Positions 30,337-58,113 of a stretch of DNA of 64,000 bases are shown one piece after another. The stretch comes from a virus: IMG/VR virus record IMGVR_UViG_3300045988_136451. One strand, given 5' to 3'. The translations under genes and the position numbers were made by a program. Within the stretch, counting starts at the first letter, position 1. Every line of letters starts with the position of its first letter. The notes below the pieces were generated by a model, which saw only the letters and a program-made list of their open reading frames with translations, was not told the DNA's origin and made no database searches.

Positions 30337-31026
30337 TTAGATCGCAGGCTCGACGAACATGCCCTCCTCCGCCTGCTTCTCGCCCGTGATTATCACGTCA
30401 AGCTCGTCGGCGTCTATCATGAGATGCAGCTTGATCTTCTCGATGAACGTGGGGTTCACGCGGTCGATGTAGTAGAACTCGCCGCGCACCTTGAACGAGA
30501 ACTGCTTGAACACCGTCACCAAGTCGTCGTCCCACGGAGTGCCCTTGCTGTCGTTGTTCGTCGTGTTCGATAGCGTCGCCATGTTAGGCTCTATGTTCAC
30601 GTACGGGTTGTCCCGCAGGCACTGGCGGTACTTCGGGTCGATTCCGATTCCGCTCACGATGCAGTCGGCGAGGATGGCACCCTCGACGGGGGAGTTCGCG
30701 TACACGTCGATGGTCACCCTGCCGCTGAAAACGTAGGCCGCAACGTCAACCCTGCCGCCGGTGCTCTTGTCGGTCACCATGACCCACTCGTTCGGGGCGG
30801 CTGGCTGGAAGTCCTCGTTCACGTATCCCACGCGGACGTAGGGCCACGCCTCGGCCACGATGGGGTAGTCCGATTCGACCTTCAGGTCTTTGTAGCCGTG
30901 GACGGCGACCATCTCGGGAGATTGCAGGAACTTCCTGATGCTGTCGGTCGCAGCCGTAAGGCAGCTGTAGAAGTACCCCACGTGCTTCGGCTCGTGCCAT
31001 ACCATGTGCCCGTCGTTACTCATCAA
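30337..31026 (-). CDS. Neck / tail terminator-region protein, 229 aa
   Basis: ORF between the intein-containing small protein and the sheath. Confidence 0.3.
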   Translation of the reverse strand: MMSNDGHMVWHEPKHVGYFYSCLTAATDSIRKFLQSPEMVAVHGYKDLKVESDYPIVAEAWPYVRVGYVNEDFQPAAPNEWVMVTDKSTGGRVDVAAYVFSGRVTIDVYANSPVEGAILADCIVSGIGIDPKYRQCLRDNPYVNIEPNMATLSNTTNNDSKGTPWDDDLVTVFKQFSFKVRGEFYYIDRVNPTFIEKIKLHLMIDADELDVIITGEKQAEEGMFVEPAI

Positions 31027-32635
31027 TCCACTCCATCATCCCGCCGACGAAGGCGTAGTCTATGTCCTCGCTGTGCATCGCTATCGCGTCGTCTATCGCG
31101 TCGGCGATGAACTGCACGGGGCCGTGGCCCGGATGCACCCAGCTCCTCGATTGGCGCGTCTCCGGCATAAGCTCGCCGTCCTGACCGCGCACCCAGTACG
31201 TCTTCTCGCCCTTGCGCCACTGGTTGATGTTCGTCACCTTGCGGAACACGAGCTGGCCGCCGATCACCATGGGGACGGTGTTGTGCGTGACTATGTAATC
31301 GTTCGTGACGTACAACCCGTCCGCACTATCGACGAGGATGCAACGGCACTCCTCGCGTCCGGAAAAGGAAACGCTCTTGAATCTCCTGCACCAACACTTT
31401 GCGCTCTGATGCGCAACGTTGTCAAGATAGCGCTTCAGCTTCTTTTCGTAAGGGGCGAGGAACGGCACAACGCCGTTGTCGAACCTCATCTCGACGATGT
31501 ACGCCACACCGTTTCGATATTTGCCGCTGCGCCTGTCCTCGTGAATATACGCATGGCCTCCGAGCGAAAGCGCTAGGCTCCGCACCTGCACCGCGAGGTC
31601 GCGGCACACCGTGGTGTACTGGCATATCGCACCGCGAGCGGCGCACGAGCCGTCCGTGTCCATGAGGCCCTGCAATAGAAGGACGCGATCTTCGACGCAC
31701 GAAAGCATGTACTCTTCTGGGATGGTCTTGCCGTATGCGTCATGCCCCCATAGTCCGAGCGACCTGAACGCATCTATGAGCGGCGATGTCGAATTGCCGC
31801 CGCGCCCCCAACGCGACGGCGCGGCATTGTAGCCGGGAGCGCCGCACGCCAACGCTATTCTAGCTCCATCTTCAGCGACCGCATGGGGGGTGACGCACTC
31901 CGGCACGAACCTCATGAACGTGTCGATGCCAGCCCCGTCATAACAGCAGAAGTACGGATACGGCCCCCGGAGGCATCCATCGCCTATCATCGCTCCGACA
32001 AAATATGGATGCAATGGAAGATCGCGCTTGTCGAACATGATCTTCGGGGCAAGACGGATGCGCCAGCTATCGCCGTGCGTCCTCCCTATCCTTCCCATGA
32101 AGTCTTCTAACGGCATCACCCGATCATCGACCCATGCCCCGTTGCGCCTGACAGACCATAAGTGCTCTTTCGTGCATCTTGTATGGCCGCCGTCCGTGAA
32201 CTCGACATCGTAAACGTCGCACATGCCCTGATCGTAAACATCGATCACCTTCACAGGCGCTCCGTCCGAGCCGATGACCAAGCATCCCGGCTCTATCTCC
32301 CCCATCGGCTTGAAGCCGTCGGGCGTGAGCACCGGCTCCGAGAGCGGCTGCGCCTTCCCGTACAGGCTCTTCATCGGGAACGTCTGGAAGCCGTTCTCTT
32401 GGTAGATGAGGTAGTGGTGCTCCGGCACGATGCCGACACCCGCGTAGCCAGCCGCGTAGTCGGGCGACGGGTAGAACGCCATCCTGCCGCCCTTGAACGT
32501 GGCGAATATGCCGCTTCCGTACTCCGCCGCGAGGTCGCATGCGGTCTCCGAAACCATGTCGAGCACGCGGTTCGCCAGACTTGTCCCGGTTAGGGGCATG
32601 TCGGCGTAAACGTCCTCGATCACTCGCTCGTCCAC
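31016..32635 (-). CDS. Small neck-region protein (about 205 aa after splicing) interrupted by a LAGLIDADG intein
   Basis: Hint N-block CLVIGSDGAPVKVIDV and block B GGHTRCTKEH. LAGLIDADG motifs FVGAMIGDGCL and LLQGLMDTDGSC. C-terminal ...YIVTHN followed by Thr. Confidence 0.5.
   Translation of the reverse strand: MDERVIEDVYADMPLTGTSLANRVLDMVSETACDLAAEYGSGIFATFKGGRMAFYPSPDYAAGYAGVGIVPEHHYLIYQENGFQTFPMKSLYGKAQPLSEPVLTPDGFKPMGEIEPGCLVIGSDGAPVKVIDVYDQGMCDVYDVEFTDGGHTRCTKEHLWSVRRNGAWVDDRVMPLEDFMGRIGRTHGDSWRIRLAPKIMFDKRDLPLHPYFVGAMIGDGCLRGPYPYFCCYDGAGIDTFMRFVPECVTPHAVAEDGARIALACGAPGYNAAPSRWGRGGNSTSPLIDAFRSLGLWGHDAYGKTIPEEYMLSCVEDRVLLLQGLMDTDGSCAARGAICQYTTVCRDLAVQVRSLALSLGGHAYIHEDRRSGKYRNGVAYIVEMRFDNGVVPFLAPYEKKLKRYLDNVAHQSAKCWCRRFKSVSFSGREECRCILVDSADGLYVTNDYIVTHNTVPMVIGGQLVFRKVTNINQWRKGEKTYWVRGQDGELMPETRQSRSWVHPGHGPVQFIADAIDDAIAMHSEDIDYAFVGGMMEWIDE
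31280..32284 (-). mobile_element. Intein (about 335 aa, LAGLIDADG homing endonuclease type) inside 31016..32635
   Basis: Boundaries from Cys1 (IEPG|C) to the terminal HN|T, counted by hand. Confidence 0.45.
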
Positions 32636-32645
32636 GGGGAGCCTC

Positions 32646-33359
32646 CTACGGCCAAGACGGCTCGGACTGCCACTTGCCGCCGCTCTGGTTGTCGGAGTTC
32701 ATGAGCTGCGGCGGGTCGCATACGTGGTCGCGCGACACCGTGAGCGAGTGCGGAGCGCCGCCCCACAGCTCGTCGGAATAGCGGAAGTCGGTAGGGAGCA
32801 GCAGCTTCGCCGTCCCGCTCTGCGACACGAGCATGCGCTGCAAGTTGGTCGTCATCTCGGTGTTGTTCGACGACACAACGCCCTGAATCGTCTGGTACTT
32901 CACGGGGCCGTCCAGCTGGAAGATGCGACCGCGAAGCGTCACGAGCGTGCCGGTCATCTCCAACACCTCGCACAGCAGGTCGCCGTCGTGGTAGATCGGC
33001 TCGACCGCCATCTTCACCGTAACGTCGAACTTCTCGCGCGTGCCGTGGTTGTCGTACTCGGTGTTGTCGCTGCCGTTCTCGTTCACCACCATGCGGCGCA
33101 TCTCCAAAGGGCGGTAGCCTCCGTCGAACGTCGTGCCGTAGCAGTTCGGGCAGTCGTTCGGTCGCTTCGACTGGTGGTTCACCTCGTCCCAGCAGACCGG
33201 GCAGCGCTTCACGAGGCCGTCCGCGAGGTCTTGCAGCGTCCACATGCGGCGCACGAGCCACGTTGAGCCGCACAGCCTCATGCCGTCCTCGACGGCCTTC
33301 CTCGTGTAGAGGACTTCGCGGGAGACGTGCCCCGCGTCCCAGTAGGCGACCCGTCCCAT
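32646..33359 (-). CDS. Neck/head-completion-like protein with zinc ribbon, 237 aa
   Basis: CPVCWDEV...CPNCYG four-Cys motif. Located downstream of the capsid genes. Confidence 0.3.
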   Translation of the reverse strand: MGRVAYWDAGHVSREVLYTRKAVEDGMRLCGSTWLVRRMWTLQDLADGLVKRCPVCWDEVNHQSKRPNDCPNCYGTTFDGGYRPLEMRRMVVNENGSDNTEYDNHGTREKFDVTVKMAVEPIYHDGDLLCEVLEMTGTLVTLRGRIFQLDGPVKYQTIQGVVSSNNTEMTTNLQRMLVSQSGTAKLLLPTDFRYSDELWGGAPHSLTVSRDHVCDPPQLMNSDNQSGGKWQSEPSWP

Positions 33360-33360
33360 C

Positions 33361-33933
33361 CTAGCGCCCCCACCAAGGCAGGGCCTTCTCGTAGGAGCGG
33401 AAGAAGGGCCATCCCAGAGAGGCGTAGGGGGTGGATGCCCAGTCGATGAGCGCGATGGTGTTGTGCGCCGCGCTCATGTCCTGAAGGACGGTGGACAGCT
33501 TCTTGCCCGCCTCCTTCAGCTGGTTCTGGTAGTCGGTCAGCACGGACTGCCAGCGGTTGAGGTAGTCGCGGCGCACCACGTCCGGCGCGCCGACGCGGGA
33601 CGTGTCCGGTATCTCGACGTAGCCGATTATGTACTGGCGTATTATCTCGATCTTCAAGGCGACCTCGAACGCCGCCGACAGGAATGGAACCGCCCACGGG
33701 AACGACTGCATGTCCCAGTTCGCGCTGGGGTGCATGCAGTACGTCATGAGGGTGCCGAGCGCCGCCGGGACGAGGGCAGCGTCAGCGTCGATGCTGTACG
33801 GCGTTACCTCTTCCAGAAACGGCCCCCAGTCGTTGTTGTCGAACTGCATGGTGAAGTAGGCGGCGACGTTGCGCACCGCCGACTGCGCGCCCTCCGGCAG
33901 GTCTGCGAACTTTATGCTTCCCTCTATCTCCAT
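33361..33933 (-). CDS. Head-tail connector/adaptor-like protein, 190 aa
   Basis: Position downstream of the major capsid protein. Confidence 0.3.
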   Translation of the reverse strand: MEIEGSIKFADLPEGAQSAVRNVAAYFTMQFDNNDWGPFLEEVTPYSIDADAALVPAALGTLMTYCMHPSANWDMQSFPWAVPFLSAAFEVALKIEIIRQYIIGYVEIPDTSRVGAPDVVRRDYLNRWQSVLTDYQNQLKEAGKKLSTVLQDMSAAHNTIALIDWASTPYASLGWPFFRSYEKALPWWGR

Positions 33934-42211: not shown

Positions 42212-43123
42212 TTACTCGCCGAAGACGCAGGCGGTAAAATCGAACGTGTATTCCGTGCCGTCCGTCTTGCTCTCGGCATCCTCGGCGCTCGCGTACAGCG
42301 TCGCCGTGAACTCCTTCACATCCTTCTGAATGGCGGCGACGAGGTTGATGGCTCCCGGCCCGTCGCCCGTCTGGCCGAACACAAGCGTCTTCTCGCCGCT
42401 GCCGAGCGTCTGGCGGACGAACGCGGAGCCGTCAGCCGCCTTCATCTCGAACGCGGCGTAGTAGCCCGTTCTGTCCTCCTCTGCGGCGAAGAACTCCGTC
42501 CAGTCGGGAACGTGGTTGACGGTTCCACCGAAGACGACGTTCGTGCCTTCGACTCTCGCGGTGAGGCCGCTCGTCAGCTCGCCTAGGTTCTTACCGGCGA
42601 AGTTCGTTCCGGCGAAGTCCGTCTTCCCTATCGTCAGCGCCGCTGGCTGCGGCGGCTCCGCGACGAGGGCTTCCGGCGCTTCTGAAACGGTTATCTTCGC
42701 CTGACCGACCGACATCAGCATGCACACCGGGTTCCCGTCGCCGACCGTCAAGCGACCGTTGGCATCCGATTCGAGCAGCACGCGGCCTCCCGACTTCAAC
42801 GTCGCCTCCGCCGCCTCCCAGTCAGCATCCTTGTCGATGACGGAGCGCGACACGTCCGCCATCGCCCCGCCTCCGAAGACGAGAACGCCAGCGCTGGGAA
42901 CCTCCCAGACATTGTGCGTCCTGTACGTCGAGAACAGCCCCAAGGGGCGCTCCGCCCCGGTTGACGGCCTCACCCCGTCAGGCCCCATGCAGGCGACCAT
43001 GCCCGGCATGATGTCGTGCCTCGAAGGGTCAACGGGCCAATCTTGGAACGTCGCCTGCGTCTTCGTGAACAATGGTTTCAGGGTTCGATGCTCCTGCGTT
43101 GCGAAATTTGACACTATAGCCAT
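42212..43123 (-). CDS. Capsid-associated protein, 303 aa, paralogous to the decoration-like protein 35748..36257, with a C-terminal extension
   Basis: Shared N-terminal HRTLKPLFTKTQAT and central W.AE.A.LK.G..V.L.S.A.G.LT blocks. Confidence 0.35.
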   Translation of the reverse strand: MAIVSNFATQEHRTLKPLFTKTQATFQDWPVDPSRHDIMPGMVACMGPDGVRPSTGAERPLGLFSTYRTHNVWEVPSAGVLVFGGGAMADVSRSVIDKDADWEAAEATLKSGGRVLLESDANGRLTVGDGNPVCMLMSVGQAKITVSEAPEALVAEPPQPAALTIGKTDFAGTNFAGKNLGELTSGLTARVEGTNVVFGGTVNHVPDWTEFFAAEEDRTGYYAAFEMKAADGSAFVRQTLGSGEKTLVFGQTGDGPGAINLVAAIQKDVKEFTATLYASAEDAESKTDGTEYTFDFTACVFGE

Positions 43124-46100
43124 CTGCTTTCCTTTCCGATAACTCCGCCGCGCATCAATTCGTCAAGCGATGCGGAGTAAGAGGCGATCTTACCTCCGCT
43201 CGCAAGATCGTAGTCTATGCCCTCTGCGTACCCGGCATCGGCGAGCGCCGCGAGCACGGTGCCCTGATCGTCCGGAACGTCGAACAGGCGGGCCGCGATG
43301 CGGGCATCGTCGGTGTCCTCCGCGTACTCCTCCTCGGCATCTTCGGTCACCTCCGCGTCAGGCTCCTCCGCATCGTCCAAGTCCTTGCGCAGCTCCTTGT
43401 TCTCCTGCGCCTCCTCCGTGTCGATGTCGCCGAAGCCCTCGGCGTACTCGACGTACTCGCACACGTCGCAGTAGATGCCGTCGAAGTCGGGGCTTCCGCA
43501 TATCGGGCACACGCGGTCGGAGTTCTGCATGTCCACCTCTTCGGGGATGCGCAGCTTGTTCACCATGTTGTCGGCCAGCTTGTAGTGACCGGCGATCTCT
43601 TGGAGGGCATCGGCGTAGAACTCCTCGTCGGCATCGGCGGCCTCCTCGACGGCGCTCCACACCTCTGCGGCAAGCTCGTCGTAGCTGTCGAAGGACAGGC
43701 CGAGGCTGTCGTACTCCTCGATGAAGTCGTTGGCGAAGCCGCTTGCGTCGTCTGCGGAGCCTTCCTTGCCCTCGCCGAACGGCTCGATGCCGAACCTCCT
43801 GCACGCGGCGTTCACCTTGTCGATGACGGCCTGCCTGTCATCGGACGGTATCTCGACCTTGTTCCCGCGATAGCCCTTGCCGAGCGCGGCCTTCGCCGCA
43901 GCGGCATGGTCTTTGTCCGAGATGTCCAGCTTCCAATCGCTCGGATTGTCGGTCGGAGTGTACGCATAGTCCGACTTGCTCTTCTCCGCCGCCGTCACCC
44001 GAAGCAGCGTCCGCGCCTCGTCGTATACTTCATCGTTCATGTCGGTGTGCCTCCATTGCATCGTCCCGAACATATGGTCGGCAAGCGTCCCGTCTGCTCC
44101 GCTGCCCACGTAGCTCTCCACCACGTCGTTCACTTTCTTGTCGAAGATGCAGTCGTAGTTCTCCGTGTTCTCGAAGTCAGACCACCTCGCATAGCCGTAC
44201 AGCTCGCCGCCGTACATCTGCCTGTTGATGCCGTCGAGGTACCAGTTGCACCCGCCAACGCCGTAGCCCCAATGGTCGGAGCCGCGAACAACGCCGTCAG
44301 GGAAGTACCAGTACTCGGAGCCTGATTCGCTCGTGTAGTCGGGAGCGCCCTGCGGCCTGTCCTCCACCTCCGCGAAGTCCGCCTCGGTCTCTATGTAGAA
44401 GTTGTCGGGGCCGAACTCCCTTTCCTTCGCGGCGACCTTGGCGGTCTTCGCCTCGGCCTCCAACGCCTGCACGGTGGCCGTCGGGTCTGCCGGGTCGTAC
44501 ACCCAGCTCTCCTCGAAGAACGCTATGCCGTTGCATATCTCGAACGCGAGAACGCCGTCGAACTCGCGCCCCTTCTGCTTGATGTGGTTGCAGAACTGGG
44601 CGGGCTGCTCTGCCACGTTCCCGCACACCGAGCACGTCGTGGTCTCGCAATTATGAACGGCATACCCCTCGGCAATATAACTATGATCTTCCTCAACTTC
44701 AAAGTTATACACCATCCCCGTGTACGGAAGAACCCTTATGCGGTCTATGCGCCTCCAAGTGCCTTGTTCGTCAACATAGCACATCATCATTTTCTTCTGT
44801 TCTTCGGAGCGATCTCCATAAGAGACGTAACGTGTGTGTTTGGCAATATCGGATATTCTCTCGGAAGACCTAGCGATTGGTTTGGACATCTTGATGCCAA
44901 GTTGAGTGCATATTGAAAATATCTGATATGCAAGGTCTTTTGAAACGGTGGAATATGCGACCCTGCGATCATCAATGTAATGTCCGTCTCCATTAAGATA
45001 CGCTTCGACAAGATCGCCAAGACACTCATCATCCCAGCGCATTGCTTCGTCGCTTATTCTTTTCCCATGGGAATACTTCCCACCATGCTCTAACATCATA
45101 TTTGCAAGTTCCGGTGAATTGCACCTTATCGTAGCAGCTCCACGCTTGATATACGGCCCAACCGCCTTATATCCGAGTTCAGAGCAAAGCGCCATGACTT
45201 CATCGTGATAATCAGTCTCGCTATCGCAAAACGTCCACTCGACAAACGCTGGTGCGCCAACACCAATGTTCAGCTTTTTGTCATATCCGAAGTTTCCCTC
45301 TGCGAGATAGTATCCAAGGAGCCTTGCGAACGCGCGATTCCCGCCACGCGATGTGCGAACGGGCTTCGGGTCGAGAACGTAATCTCCAACCTCCAAGTCA
45401 CTCGCAATGACCCATCCTTCAAAATCGGGCTGGTATCCATGGCCGTCAACGCCGTTCTTCGCGGCCTCGCGCACATGCGCCGCAAGGCTTCTATGGCTCT
45501 TGAACGAGCGCCCGCAAATGCAAGAATGCTCTGCATTGTCGCCATCATGAGCTATCCTGCTTTCACGTATGGTTCGCATCGCGTCGTTCTTCATTCGACG
45601 CACCCAGACGGGATGCTCGTCGGTAAGAACCATCGGACGTTTGCTTCCATAAGATCGCACCTCATACACGATTCCGGAATGCAAGCTCGCCATCGTGTCG
45701 GCAACCCTTCGCACGTTCCCAAGATGCGTTATAACCTCATCGCCGACCGCAACGTCTTCGATGTTTTTGACGGTGCCGTTTGACATAGTTATATGCGTTC
45801 CGGGAACAAAGCAGTTGAGGCCCATGGAAACGGTGTCGATGTCGCCGCTGCGGATGAGCGCGCACAGCCTCGGGAACGTAACCTCGTCCATCTCCATCAG
45901 AATCTCTATCCAACGGTCTTCCGGGTCTTCGTCGTGGTACACCGCGTCGATGATGTAGCCGCGCGCCCTGTCGAGGTTCGTGTTCGAGTGGTTCACGTAC
46001 ACCGGCTTGCCGACGAACGTGCGGTACGCGGTCTTCAGCTCCTCGTGCGGCAGCATGTCGAAGTTCAGGTTCGGAACGTCTGCGGTGCATGCGCGGACGG

Positions 46101-46227
46101 AGACGTACAGGAACCCGTCGCCGCGATCATCGTACTCGAACGAGCCGAGGGCCTTGCGCGCGGCGACGCGCCCGGTCGTCCCGAAGCTCGTTCCGATTAT
46201 GGAGCAGTTGGAGAACTTAACGAACAT
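43114..46227 (-). CDS. Head morphogenesis protein (possible prohead protease / minor capsid protein) with LAGLIDADG intein, zinc ribbon and long acidic C-terminus
   Basis: Hint block CFVPGTHITMSNGTVKNIEDVAVGDEVITHLG. LAGLIDADG motifs LLGYYLAEGNF and LVEAYLNGDGHY. C-terminal ...EGYAVHN followed by Cys. CPICGSPDFDGIYCDVC zinc ribbon. Confidence 0.45.
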   Translation of the reverse strand: MFVKFSNCSIIGTSFGTTGRVAARKALGSFEYDDRGDGFLYVSVRACTADVPNLNFDMLPHEELKTAYRTFVGKPVYVNHSNTNLDRARGYIIDAVYHDEDPEDRWIEILMEMDEVTFPRLCALIRSGDIDTVSMGLNCFVPGTHITMSNGTVKNIEDVAVGDEVITHLGNVRRVADTMASLHSGIVYEVRSYGSKRPMVLTDEHPVWVRRMKNDAMRTIRESRIAHDGDNAEHSCICGRSFKSHRSLAAHVREAAKNGVDGHGYQPDFEGWVIASDLEVGDYVLDPKPVRTSRGGNRAFARLLGYYLAEGNFGYDKKLNIGVGAPAFVEWTFCDSETDYHDEVMALCSELGYKAVGPYIKRGAATIRCNSPELANMMLEHGGKYSHGKRISDEAMRWDDECLGDLVEAYLNGDGHYIDDRRVAYSTVSKDLAYQIFSICTQLGIKMSKPIARSSERISDIAKHTRYVSYGDRSEEQKKMMMCYVDEQGTWRRIDRIRVLPYTGMVYNFEVEEDHSYIAEGYAVHNCETTTCSVCGNVAEQPAQFCNHIKQKGREFDGVLAFEICNGIAFFEESWVYDPADPTATVQALEAEAKTAKVAAKEREFGPDNFYIETEADFAEVEDRPQGAPDYTSESGSEYWYFPDGVVRGSDHWGYGVGGCNWYLDGINRQMYGGELYGYARWSDFENTENYDCIFDKKVNDVVESYVGSGADGTLADHMFGTMQWRHTDMNDEVYDEARTLLRVTAAEKSKSDYAYTPTDNPSDWKLDISDKDHAAAAKAALGKGYRGNKVEIPSDDRQAVIDKVNAACRRFGIEPFGEGKEGSADDASGFANDFIEEYDSLGLSFDSYDELAAEVWSAVEEAADADEEFYADALQEIAGHYKLADNMVNKLRIPEEVDMQNSDRVCPICGSPDFDGIYCDVCEYVEYAEGFGDIDTEEAQENKELRKDLDDAEEPDAEVTEDAEEEYAEDTDDARIAARLFDVPDDQGTVLAALADAGYAEGIDYDLASGGKIASYSASLDELMRGGVIGKESRWL
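44650..45813 (-). mobile_element. Intein (about 388 aa) within 43114..46227
   Basis: Boundaries MGLN|C ... AVHN|C, hand-counted. Lower GC than the flanks. Confidence 0.5.
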
Positions 46228-55125: not shown

Positions 55126-58113
55126 CTACAGGCCGCCACACCACGGCCTCCCGGCCCATCCGTCGGTGAGGCCCATCTGCCTCTCGAACTCCATGGAGCG
55201 CTCGAAGTAGAACTGCTCCTTCGCAAGGTTCTCCCTCATGCCGACCTCCGGCATGTAGCCGCCCTGCGCCGCGCCGGTGATGCGCAGCAGGGTTCCCTCT
55301 CCAAGCGCCTCGACCTGATCTGACAGGAGGTTCACGCACACCGTCGAAACGCAGTCCGCCATGTCGTTGTGACAGTTTCCGGAAATGAGAATCTTGCCGT
55401 TCCTGCGCGTGACAAGCGTTCCATTTTGAACCTCGAAGCAATACACCATGCCGTCGTATCGGCTTATATCGACCTTACTTCTCTCAACCGCCGATTCTTT
55501 GCGACCGAGAAGGCATATTTCGTGAAATTCCCCGCCCGACGGCGTTTTGCAATCATAGTATGACGTTGCGGTTCCGTTTGTCATAAATACGGCCTGCATC
55601 GCATCGGCAACGCCCTTGTCCTTTATCCCCGCTCTGATGTAAGCGTTCTTGTCCTTGCTAAAGGTGCCGTCTCCATGCAGGAAGCCATCTATGAAGCAGT
55701 CCTGCTCCTTCTTGCCCCATTCCACGAAAATCTCCGAAGGTATTGCAAGGTCACCAGCTCCATCGAAAAACCTTTCCAGCGTCCAGTCTGCAAGCCATTT
55801 GCTATACACCTTGTATTCGTATAGCACTTTCCTCTGATATCCGCTTTTCTTGCACTCTCGTTTAGACCACTCGAAGCCAGACCCATCAAGAGCCGCCTCG
55901 ATATACACGATTCCATCTTCCTTCGACTGCGAGATTATAAAAACTCCATCACGCCGAAGCGCAATCTTTCCGCCATCCGCCAACCAGAAACCGACGATCC
56001 TTGCAAAGCAGCCGAAATCAACTCCGCTCGGAAGATCGACCAAAGCACCTGCATTCCCGTTTTCACCACACCTTGGGATGAAGAACTTAGACCGATTGGC
56101 CAAGATGCCATCAATAGGGGACTTCATAAGCTCAGTCATCTTCCCGTGGTTGCACAGCCTGTACAGCATCCTATGATTCGGTGTCACCTTGAAATCGACA
56201 AGACGGTTCGAGTATCCGTACATTTCGCCATGGTACTCGTATGCGATTTTCCTGATCGGCTGCTGCCACTCGATCTTGCCGTCCTTTGAATACGTTGCGA
56301 CGCGTCTGCCCATGACGGCATCTTTGAACAGAACCCATCCATCCTCCGTCAAAACCTCCGTTGCGGCATCGTGACATACGTCGCCCGTCTCCGGGTGGTC
56401 TACCTTCTTGCCGTTCTTCAGGATGAGGAACTTCAGCTCCTTCTCCAACATGCACACCTCGCCGAGACCCAGTATGTCGTCTATCACGAACGGGGCGTGA
56501 ACCCATCCTTGGTAGAGGGCCTGCTTGAACCGCTCCCAGCGCTTCATGTTCTTCTTCTCGGTGGCGGTGTCCTCCTCGATGACGACCGAGCCGTTGAGGA
56601 ACGTCCCCATCGTCCTCTCCAAGTTCAGCGTGTCGATGAGCGACGCGCTCTGGTACTGGTCGAACGTGCAGCGGACGATGTTGAACAGCTTCAGGTACTC
56701 GATGATCTGCTTCTGCACGACCGTGTAGTTGATGCGCCGAACGCCGTGCTCGTCGGGAGGGAAGTCCTTCGCTTGGAAAATCTTCTGCACGTCGATGAAG
56801 GCGTGGAAGAAGCCGTCCTCGCACAGCTCCTTGTGGCCGATTGCTATGCAGAAGTTGTCGTTCACGCGCCCAGCGTCGCAGTGCATGACGTACTGGCGGT
56901 CGATGCGCCCGTGCCTAGCCGGGACGTTCGCGTTGCCCTGAAGGTCTGGGTACGCGTTGAACATCTTCTCAACCATGTCGGGGTTCAGGTACGCGTCCTG
57001 CGACTTGGCGAACTGCGCGCGGTACTCAACCCTGAACTTCTCCGGGTCGCGCTCCTCCTCCATGGCGAACGATTCGTCCTGCTCCGGAGGAAGCAGCAGG
57101 GGCTTGCCTATCGCCGGTACGTACTGGCCGTCCGTGAACAGCTCCCACGACGGCGCTTGCATGCAGAACATGTCGGGGTGCTTCGAGCTGCCGTCCTCGT
57201 CGCGCTCGAAGGCGTTCTTGAACAGCTTGTAGAACATGCCCACCTCCGACACGGGGGTGGACGGGACGACTATCATGGCCTCCTTGCCGACCTGACGCAG
57301 CGACGGCGTTAGGGCCTTCCAGATCGCCTCCGACGATGCCTTCAGGCCGTCGTCGCGACCGTAGGCGAACTCGTCGTACGCCTGTATGATCGAGGCGTTG
57401 CCTCGCGCGGAATCGGGGTTGGCGGCCTTCGGCTCGACGAGAAGCGATGCCCTGCGCCTTATGTTCTTCCTGATGCCCGATTCGATCTGCCGCATCTCCT
57501 CGCGCTCGTTGAACACCTTGTCCGCAGCCGTTTCCAGCTTTATCGCGGTCTCGGACAGCGAGCTAGTCCACGGGTCGAACCACGAGCACTCTATGATGGT
57601 GTTCAGGATGTCGAGGTACAGCGCGGACTTCGCTTGGCTGAACGTCGTCGCCATGACATCGACGTGCATCTCCTTGCCGTCCGGCAGGTGGAGGACGCGC
57701 TGGGGGTTGCCGAGCGAGAGCATCTGGGCCAGCTTGTAGTCGATGAGGTGCGACACGGTGAAGCCCTTTGAGCCGCGTCGCCCGAGGCAGAAGATGTTCT
57801 CGCGGAAGTGCTTGTATCCGCGCTTCTTCAGCCACTCGATGCGGTCGAAGATGTCGAGCGGAATCTTCACCGGGCCGCCGTTGCGCGTGCTCTCGCGCCA
57901 CCCTTCTATCACTTGGAAGTCGTACCGGTTCATCTGGTCGATCTCCAAGAAGATGATCTTCATGAGCGTCTTCTGGCGGGGGTACAGCGGTGTCCATTGC
58001 AGGGACGGCGTGTACATGTCGTAGAAGTCGCAGATCGGCGGGAGCCGTTCGAGCGCCAGCTTCGGGGCCGCCAGCGACGAGAAGACATCTATGCCGTGCT
58101 TGATCTCGCCCAT
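55126..58113 (-). CDS. Terminase large subunit interrupted by a LAGLIDADG intein
   Basis: Position after a small coupled gene and before portal. Extein of about 660 aa. Intein CHDAATEVLTEDG... with FWLADGG and FIDGFLHGDGT motifs, ending ...ILISGN followed by Cys. Confidence 0.55.
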   Translation of the reverse strand: MGEIKHGIDVFSSLAAPKLALERLPPICDFYDMYTPSLQWTPLYPRQKTLMKIIFLEIDQMNRYDFQVIEGWRESTRNGGPVKIPLDIFDRIEWLKKRGYKHFRENIFCLGRRGSKGFTVSHLIDYKLAQMLSLGNPQRVLHLPDGKEMHVDVMATTFSQAKSALYLDILNTIIECSWFDPWTSSLSETAIKLETAADKVFNEREEMRQIESGIRKNIRRRASLLVEPKAANPDSARGNASIIQAYDEFAYGRDDGLKASSEAIWKALTPSLRQVGKEAMIVVPSTPVSEVGMFYKLFKNAFERDEDGSSKHPDMFCMQAPSWELFTDGQYVPAIGKPLLLPPEQDESFAMEEERDPEKFRVEYRAQFAKSQDAYLNPDMVEKMFNAYPDLQGNANVPARHGRIDRQYVMHCDAGRVNDNFCIAIGHKELCEDGFFHAFIDVQKIFQAKDFPPDEHGVRRINYTVVQKQIIEYLKLFNIVRCTFDQYQSASLIDTLNLERTMGTFLNGSVVIEEDTATEKKNMKRWERFKQALYQGWVHAPFVIDDILGLGEVCMLEKELKFLILKNGKKVDHPETGDVCHDAATEVLTEDGWVLFKDAVMGRRVATYSKDGKIEWQQPIRKIAYEYHGEMYGYSNRLVDFKVTPNHRMLYRLCNHGKMTELMKSPIDGILANRSKFFIPRCGENGNAGALVDLPSGVDFGCFARIVGFWLADGGKIALRRDGVFIISQSKEDGIVYIEAALDGSGFEWSKRECKKSGYQRKVLYEYKVYSKWLADWTLERFFDGAGDLAIPSEIFVEWGKKEQDCFIDGFLHGDGTFSKDKNAYIRAGIKDKGVADAMQAVFMTNGTATSYYDCKTPSGGEFHEICLLGRKESAVERSKVDISRYDGMVYCFEVQNGTLVTRRNGKILISGNCHNDMADCVSTVCVNLLSDQVEALGEGTLLRITGAAQGGYMPEVGMRENLAKEQFYFERSMEFERQMGLTDGWAGRPWCGGL
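55375..56376 (-). mobile_element. Intein (about 334 aa) within the large terminase gene
   Basis: Boundaries GDV|C ... SGN|C, hand-counted. Unusual GN rather than HN terminus. Confidence 0.45.

Follow-up and report, generated by a model that had tools for sequence, protein, structure and literature searches.

The window analysed here is the whole stretch of 64,000 nucleotides of IMG/VR virus record IMGVR_UViG_3300045988_136451, which is 99.8% identical over 8 kb to Eggerthella phage LE2-3 (MW679026.1). One of its minus-strand genes is LE23_82 of MW679026.1, which was deposited under the product name 'PhoH family protein' and encodes a precursor of 539 amino acids (aa), in which a long element separates the two parts of a small protein. 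Along the minus strand, the major capsid protein (MCP) gene (phrog_2522) is followed by genes for proteins of 207, 190 and 237 aa, the precursor gene, a gene for a 229-aa protein, the tail sheath gene (Phage_sheath_1C, phrog_2839) and a gene for a tube-like virion protein. An initial annotation, made from the sequence without database searches, had noticed this open reading frame (ORF) between the capsid/neck genes and the tail sheath gene, and had proposed that it encodes a small neck-region virion protein carrying an intein with a LAGLIDADG endonuclease. The reading frame is real, its position agrees with the gene order, and the core of the proposal is borne out: judged from its sequence, the gene holds an intein with a LAGLIDADG homing endonuclease. 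Very probably, a 181-aa Ne1/tail-completion neck protein is interrupted between Lys94 and Thr(+1) by a class 3 LAGLIDADG intein of 358 aa (Table 1).

Table 1. Positions of the precursor gene, its predicted intein and two further inteins in the window (a slash marks a splice junction or insertion point)
Feature	Position	Strand	Basis or remark
Precursor gene (LE23_82)	31016..32635	minus	539 aa; ORF list; GTG start, AGGAGG 7 nt upstream
N-extein, residues 1-94, ending ...FPMKSLYGK	32354..32635	minus	alignment with P0001-P0007
Intein A95-N452, 358 aa, Hint domain split by LAGLIDADG endonuclease	31280..32353	minus	exact gap against intein-less alleles
Ala95, intein residue 1, non-nucleophilic	32351..32353	minus	Ala in 88/96 relatives
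Cys118, 'Cys1' of the initial annotation; internal block A position, no splice residue	32282..32284	minus	alignment of 96 relatives, 6bs8
Block B core T155-K-E-H158-L-W160 (B:7 Thr, B:10 His, B:12 Trp)	32156..32173	minus	aligns with AQHQW of Msm DnaBi1
LAGLIDADG motif 1, residues 210-221, PYFVGAMIGDGC, acidic D219	31973..32008	minus	relatives alignment
LAGLIDADG motif 2, residues 318-329, VLLLQGLMDTDG, acidic D328	31649..31684	minus	Pfam and relatives alignment
Cys432, block F:4, predicted initiating nucleophile	31340..31342	minus	Cys in 95/96 relatives
Block G end T450-H451-N452 and Thr453 (+1, first C-extein residue)	31277..31288	minus	relatives alignment
C-extein, residues 453-539 (TVPMVIGGQLVFRK...EWIDE), and stop codon	31016..31279	minus	alignment with intein-less homologues
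Predicted homing site, ~30 nt of extein on each side, intein between	31250..32383	minus	empty site TACGGGAAG/ACCGTCCCCATGGTGATCGGCGGC reconstructed
Second intein, residues 139-526 of 1037-aa protein (gene 43114..46227)	~44650..45813	minus	...SMGLN/CFVPGTHITM...EGYAVHN/CETTT
Third intein, residues ~580-913 of 995-aa large terminase (phrog_2; gene 55126..58113)	~55375..56376	minus	boundary by eye

The exact boundaries of the intein were read directly from alleles that do not carry it. A search of the in-silico spliced extein against a collection of 5.8 billion proteins recovered the kind of intein-less homologue that the initial annotation had recommended looking for. There are seven of these (P0001-P0007, 172-193 aa), one of them 98% identical and several from syntenic phage contigs of ~110 kb, and all run without gap over ...[LF]-[YFE]-G-[KR]/[TV]-[IV]-P-[ML].... 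Moreover, the absence of the intein was checked at the DNA level in the empty alleles L002-L006. Because the intein-less homologues run straight through ...LYGK/T(V)PM..., the intein is assigned to A95-N452, and the boundary is unambiguous, since neither junction has repeated residues that would let it slide. The mature spliced product would be 181 aa long, with the junction ...SLYGK-TVPMV....

The initial annotation had correctly recognized the terminal HN followed by Thr (H451-N452, then T453), but had taken Cys118 (CLVIGSDG) as the first intein residue and had therefore described an element of 335 aa in a host protein of ~205 aa. The gap against the intein-less homologues makes the intein 23 residues longer and leaves a host of residues 1-94 and 453-539, and the peptide ...EIEPG-TVPMV... 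that had been proposed for mass spectrometry is wrong because the splice junction lies at K94/A95. That delimitation amounts to a class 1 intein in which Cys118 would perform the N-S acyl shift, an arrangement to which the hydrophobic residues after Cys118 and the canonical block B of T155xxH158 might lend some colour. We give it next to no credence, and at the sequence level it is already refuted by the intein-less alleles. The 23 residues AQPLSEPVLTPDGFKPMGEIEPG that it assigns to the host are absent from all seven homologues. They open the Hint domain, where they line up in register with 6bs8 and 6rix (residues 4-26) and with the block A of class 3 inteins of solved structure. In an alignment of 96 full-length intein relatives, from which all conservation counts for the intein were taken, Ala is kept at position 1 (88/96), Gln at position 2 (90/96) and Pro at position 3 (92/96), while the Cys118 column is Asp in 80 of the 96 and Cys in the LE2-3 intein only. 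Cys118 lies 23 residues inside the intein, opposite the Asp of 'VGDHLLG' in 6bs8, and given this Asp column it was also rejected as an alternative nucleophile.

Homology to known inteins extends over the whole element. A total of 140 intein-bearing homologues were found, and the E-values to intein-bearing proteins obtained by tblastn and HMMER range from 1e-27 to 1e-114, far beyond chance. Nearly all of the 683 records returned by tblastn against cultured phages cover query residues 93-453 in helicases, terminases, PhoH and primases, and residues ~85-454 also match PHROG families that contain inteins (terminase, DnaC-like and primase). Among structures in the PDB searched by phmmer, the best matches are the class 3 DnaB inteins of Mycobacterium smegmatis (Msm; 6bs8) and M. 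chimaera (6rix/6riy), with E ~2e-5, followed by gp41-1. The alignments with 6bs8 and 6rix start at residue 4 in query and target alike, and the C-terminal alignment to solved inteins places CRCILVDSADGLYVTNDYIVTHN opposite VRCVEVDNPEHLYLAGPGMVPTHN.

Class 3 inteins are defined by a non-nucleophilic residue 1 covarying with Trp B:12, Cys F:4 and Thr G:5 (WCT), and by Thr or Ser at +1 (Tori et al., PMC2807308). In 6bs8 this triplet is W67, C118 and T137, and the substitution C118A abolishes splicing (Kelley et al.). The full signature is directly visible in the LE2-3 element, whose W160, C432 and T450 align to W67, C118 and T137 of Msm DnaBi1, and in which 'CRCILVD' around Cys432 aligns with 'VRCVEVD' of 6bs8, where Cys118 is the catalytic cysteine. 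The 96 relatives start with AQP and end with THN; His158 (B:10), Trp160 (B:12), His451 (G:6) and Asn452 (G:7) are each kept in 95 of them and Thr450 (G:5) in all, while the +1 residue is Thr in 83 and Ser in 11. The block B of the initial annotation, GGHTRCTKEH, was well placed (T155, H158), but the class 1 mechanism that it implied does not fit an intein with Ala at residue 1 and the WCT signature. By these alignments, the element carries every sequence-level signature of a class 3 intein.

Both endonuclease motifs proposed by the initial annotation are intact, namely GAMIGDG (D219) and GLMDTDG (D328). Within motif 1 (PYFVGAMIGDG, 210-220), G214 is found in 96/96, D219 in 93/96 and G220 in 94/96 relatives, and within motif 2 (LLLQGLMDTDG, 319-329), D326, D328 and G329 are each invariant. 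The Pfam model LAGLIDADG_3 matches residues 319-375 with E 6.8e-07 (29.9 bits against a cutoff of 22.5). In addition, the GC content at third codon positions (GC3) is 0.729 in the intein but 0.85-0.93 in the exteins and in every structural gene nearby, and such a low value is consistent with foreign origin and partial amelioration.

Comparison with the empty allele L002, which is 98% identical to the spliced LE2-3 gene, revealed a cluster of substitutions at the insertion point: 14 of 546 nt differ, and nine of these lie between -4 and +24 (Bonferroni-corrected binomial P ~2e-6), among the resulting changes being Thr to Val at +1 and Val to Leu. The empty site reads TACGGCAAG/ACCGTCCCGATG in the L005 type and TACGGAAAA/GTCGTCCCAATGCTT in the L002 variant. 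In L002:98-643 (metagenome contig ERR10101914_333149), Val replaces Thr at +1 (ACC to GTC), with seven more changes within ~25 nt. As 16 of 68 aligned host-family members have Val in the +1 column, the host protein tolerates Val there, while in the L002 allele it would block the splicing of any intein inserted. Such a cluster is the pattern expected of a co-conversion tract or of a selected endonuclease-resistant site. We regard as unlikely an intein of class 3 that splices, has an inactive endonuclease and is only inherited vertically. Many resident inteins do have dead endonucleases, and only the second motif gives a Pfam LAGLIDADG match above threshold, but the acidic residues are conserved in both motifs, the differences from the empty allele gather at the insertion point, and the eight allelic inteins described below reside in exteins that are far more diverged than one would expect from a single recent descent.

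The initial annotation had left the host protein unassigned, and it can now be described, with moderate confidence, as Ne1/tail-completion-like. When a profile of the extein was run against 1.84 billion representatives, 91 relatives were found, most of which are taken to be intein-less because they are mostly 110-260 aa long; the counts for the host family refer to an alignment of 68 members. All 68 match phrog_2819 (unknown function); 11 of them have a further match to phrog_5, 'tail completion or Neck1 protein', with E down to 1.5e-08, and two have one to HK97-gp10_like of Pfam (PF04883; best E 2.9e-05), while the spliced LE2-3 protein itself matches phrog_2819 only, neither phrog_5 nor PF04883. 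An AlphaFold2 model of the spliced protein built from eight sequences had a pLDDT of 60.5 and was replaced by one built from the 68-sequence alignment (pLDDT 90.9), which shows a long N-terminal helix, a beta region and C-terminal helices. This is the Ne1-type fold of long N-terminal helix, beta apex and C-terminal helix, and it matches that of 80alpha gp51. Hits in BFVD are labelled 'tail component', 'HK97-gp10' and neck protein, among other names. In the PDB, Foldseek detected no significant match to the better model, and the extein-family profile had no match among PDB sequences. By tblastn against cultured phages, the spliced extein matched nothing besides LE2-3 and one hypothetical protein, from Rhodococcus phage Finch.

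Gene order points in the same direction. In type 1 necks the order is Ad1-Hc1-Ne1-Tc1 (Lopes et al.), into which the position of the host gene fits; like Ne1, it lies two genes upstream of the tube gene (x-x-[host gene]-x-sheath-tube), between the putative head-closure and tail-terminator genes, and the same order from MCP to tube is found in L003-L007. From fold, remote profile matches and gene order, the host protein is likely a member of the Ne1/tail-completion superfamily (HK97 gp10, 80alpha gp51). The deposited product name and a junction that reads GK/T would instead suit a PhoH-like or other P-loop NTPase with the intein in a true Walker A motif. We hold this to be extremely improbable, as Pfam finds neither PhoH (PF02562) nor any other P-loop domain in the protein, Met88, five residues before Gly93, stands where a Walker A motif has its first glycine (63/68 members), so that the motif is not [AG]xxxxGK[ST], and the helix/beta/helix model matches 80alpha gp51. 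A true P-loop host was thus rejected on the missing domain and Met88, and the name 'PhoH family protein' of LE23_82 is attributed to intein-to-intein similarity. As a separate observation, P0008 (149 aa, from an 830-nt ENA contig) is ThiF-like (PF00899), and its last ~31 residues are identical to the C-terminus of the neck protein (FIADAIDDAIAMHSEDIDYAFVGGMMEWIDE); it is probably a chimeric metagenome assembly.

Within the host family, the intein splits the most conserved motif, with the consensus L-x-G-K/T-[IV]-P: G82 is invariant, M88, G93 and P97 each exceed 90%, and K94 is present in 55 of 68 members. Among the 'AQP...THN' relatives, 52 of 96 lie at GK/T or GK/S junctions and 81 of 96 have Lys at -1, and most of these Lys or GK junctions lie in the Walker A loop of a PhoH, TerL or helicase protein. 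Eight inteins (the query, P0010, P0011, P0012-15 and P0017) occupy the homologous site of the neck protein, one of them within another myovirus-like module, in which the genes come in the same order. Their spliced exteins all match the host-family profile (E 1e-26 to 1e-53), and the eight form one clade in 32 of 40 neighbour-joining bootstraps, the sister of which is a single long branch, P0050 (WR/C junction), uninformative on origin. Probably, the neck-protein site was invaded once, by an intein of the P-loop-targeting class 3 pool, because it mimics the Walker A 'GK/T' junction, and the intein then spread within the host family.

Taken as a class 3 intein in a Ne1/tail-completion protein, the element would act as follows. 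After translation of the 539-aa precursor, Cys432 (block F:4), and not residue 1, would attack the Lys94-Ala95 peptide bond and form a branched thioester; the N-extein would then move to the side chain of Thr453, Asn452 would cyclise and release the intein, and an O-to-N shift would yield the mature ...SLYGK-TVPMV... protein for placement in the neck. When related phages co-infect a cell, the freed intein may, as a homing endonuclease, attack their intein-less alleles and be copied into them by recombinational repair. It is very unlikely that the element is instead a decayed or splicing-inactive remnant, with the 539-aa protein working unspliced or the gene dispensable. In favour of a remnant, splicing is a prediction from sequence, and the partly ameliorated composition (GC3 0.73) suggests long residence. 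However, all catalytic positions and both endonuclease motifs are intact, LE2-3 is a cultured, plaque-forming isolate, and Ne1/tail-completion proteins are important to the infectivity of lambda, P2 and SPP1. In addition, the insertion cuts through the best conserved motif of the family, so that without splicing the protein is unlikely to adopt its mature fold.

Several points weigh against the reading as a mobile class 3 intein acquired from P-loop genes. Pfam on the full protein gave no Hint model at E<=0.1, and NCBIfam models gave only sub-threshold partial matches to intein-bearing families; of the profile check on the 539-aa product that the initial annotation had advised, the LAGLIDADG_3 part was thus positive and the Hint part negative, and since no Hint or intein profile reached significance, the case for an intein rests on direct homology. 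That the intein splices, that it needs Cys432 to do so and that its endonuclease is active are predictions from sequence. The substitution cluster could stem from co-conversion, from selection for endonuclease resistance or from local recombination unrelated to homing, and comparison with the more distant alleles L003-L006 gave it no polarity. Moreover, as the sister of the neck-protein clade tells nothing of the donor lineage, a P-loop origin is only plausible.

The intein is rich in cysteine, with 16 cysteines in 358 aa (4.5%), the highest content among the 96 relatives (median 1.8%); they include clusters at CC (230-231), CWC (414-416) and CRC (430-432, which holds the predicted catalytic Cys), and the closest relative, P0010, has 14. 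In Msm DnaBi1, also of class 3, splicing is reversibly blocked by a disulfide to the catalytic Cys, and the high cysteine content may bear on a control of splicing by redox state or metals in the phage of a strict anaerobe. As the 80alpha equivalent of the host protein is present as a single copy inside the neck, where it contacts the DNA end and the tape measure protein, splicing could decide at what point, if at all, tails can be joined and become infectious. That the intein is not only a parasite but also gates virion completion after translation, in response to redox state or metals, is nevertheless a speculative and improbable idea; if true, such a gate could, for example, block maturation on exposure of the host to oxygen.

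The adjoining neck-region genes on the minus strand (30337..31026, 32646..33359 and 33361..33933) match only phrog_2748, phrog_2806 and phrog_2791, all of unknown function, and by position only would be the equivalents of tail terminator, head closure and adaptor. Two further inteins were noticed in the window. The second one lies in a 1037-aa protein with an N-terminus that matches the head maturation protease family phrog_18299; its Pfam Hint and Intein_splicing matches are below cutoff, its GC3 is 0.52 against ~0.89 in the extein, and it looks like a class 1 intein from its junction residues. The third one, in the large terminase, reads ...HPETGDV/CHDAATEVLTEDGW...GKILISGN/CHNDMADC, with a penultimate Gly in place of His, and has a GC3 of 0.61 against 0.90. 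Among its morphogenesis genes, phage LE2-3 thus has at least three that carry an intein, those of the neck protein, the protease-like protein and the terminase, and it has near-identical intein-free relatives in metagenomes, which makes it a convenient natural system for the study of intein homing in gut phages.

So far, the hosts of class 3 inteins have nearly all been P-loop helicases, terminases, PhoH and Cas4-like nucleases. The present assignment would add to them a small neck protein that is not an enzyme, and the likely route is invasion of a conserved 'GK/T' site that mimics Walker A. It also corrects the public 'PhoH family protein' annotation, gives phrog_2819 a Ne1/tail-completion-like assignment and supplies exact boundaries; a splicing assay or virion proteomics designed on the earlier junction would have failed. 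In the literature searched, no intein was found in a tail-completion, Ne1, HK97 gp10 or neck protein, and none in any Eggerthella phage. The initial annotation had called a small virion protein a rare intein host; inteins in portal, minor capsid and tape measure proteins are, however, already on record from an actinophage survey (10.1101/2025.01.02.630785), and inteins of mycobacteriophages occur in nucleic-acid-binding proteins, the portal among them (Kelley et al.).

Characterized tail-completion/Ne1 proteins (80alpha gp51, SPP1 gp16.1, lambda gpZ, P2 gpS and HK97 gp10) share with the LE2-3 host protein the long N-terminal helix, beta apex and C-terminal helix and the gene order Ad-Hc-Ne1-Tc1-tail. 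Their sequence similarity to it is seen only through intermediate family members, their beta region is smaller than that of the LE2-3 protein, and no characterized member has an intein.

On the side of the intein, the prototype of class 3, the Bethlehem DnaB intein (PMC2807308), resembles the present one in its non-nucleophilic residue 1, WCT at B:12/F:4/G:5, Thr at +1, terminal HN, phage origin and similar size (341 vs 358 aa). It differs in that residue 1 is Pro rather than Ala, the host is a DnaB-like helicase rather than a small non-enzymatic neck protein, and splicing has been demonstrated, whereas here it is predicted. The DnaBi1 inteins of Msm and M. chimaera (6bs8, 6rix; PMC6195587, PMC7664689) share Ala1, H-x-W in block B, R-C-[VI]-x-V-D in block F and the end THN; they are mini-inteins without endonuclease, in contrast to the LAGLIDADG element here, and they interrupt the DnaB P-loop, with Ser as +1 residue and DxxH in block B, where the present intein has Thr and TxxH. 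A further comparison is with the 'AQP...THN' class 3 LAGLIDADG inteins P0016-P0128 of phage and metagenome contigs (in PhoH, TerL, Cas4/PD-(D/E)XK and helicase genes), which are 28-37% identical over 358 aa and have the same termini, the same endonuclease and mostly a K/T or K/S junction. Their exteins are nucleotide-handling enzymes, while the eight neck-protein inteins form a clade of their own.

As for virion proteins, the actinophage survey found class 3 inteins in four extein types only, one class 3 intein being reported in the minor capsid protein of phage REQ3 (10.1101/2025.01.02.630785). The portal, minor capsid and tape measure inteins of that survey involve other host proteins and other insertion sites, and those of the minor capsid protein have non-canonical endonucleases, in contrast to the canonical in-frame LAGLIDADG of LE2-3, but they set the precedent for inteins in virion proteins. 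LE23_82 thus provides a new host and a new insertion site for a well-known kind of element, and not a new kind of element.

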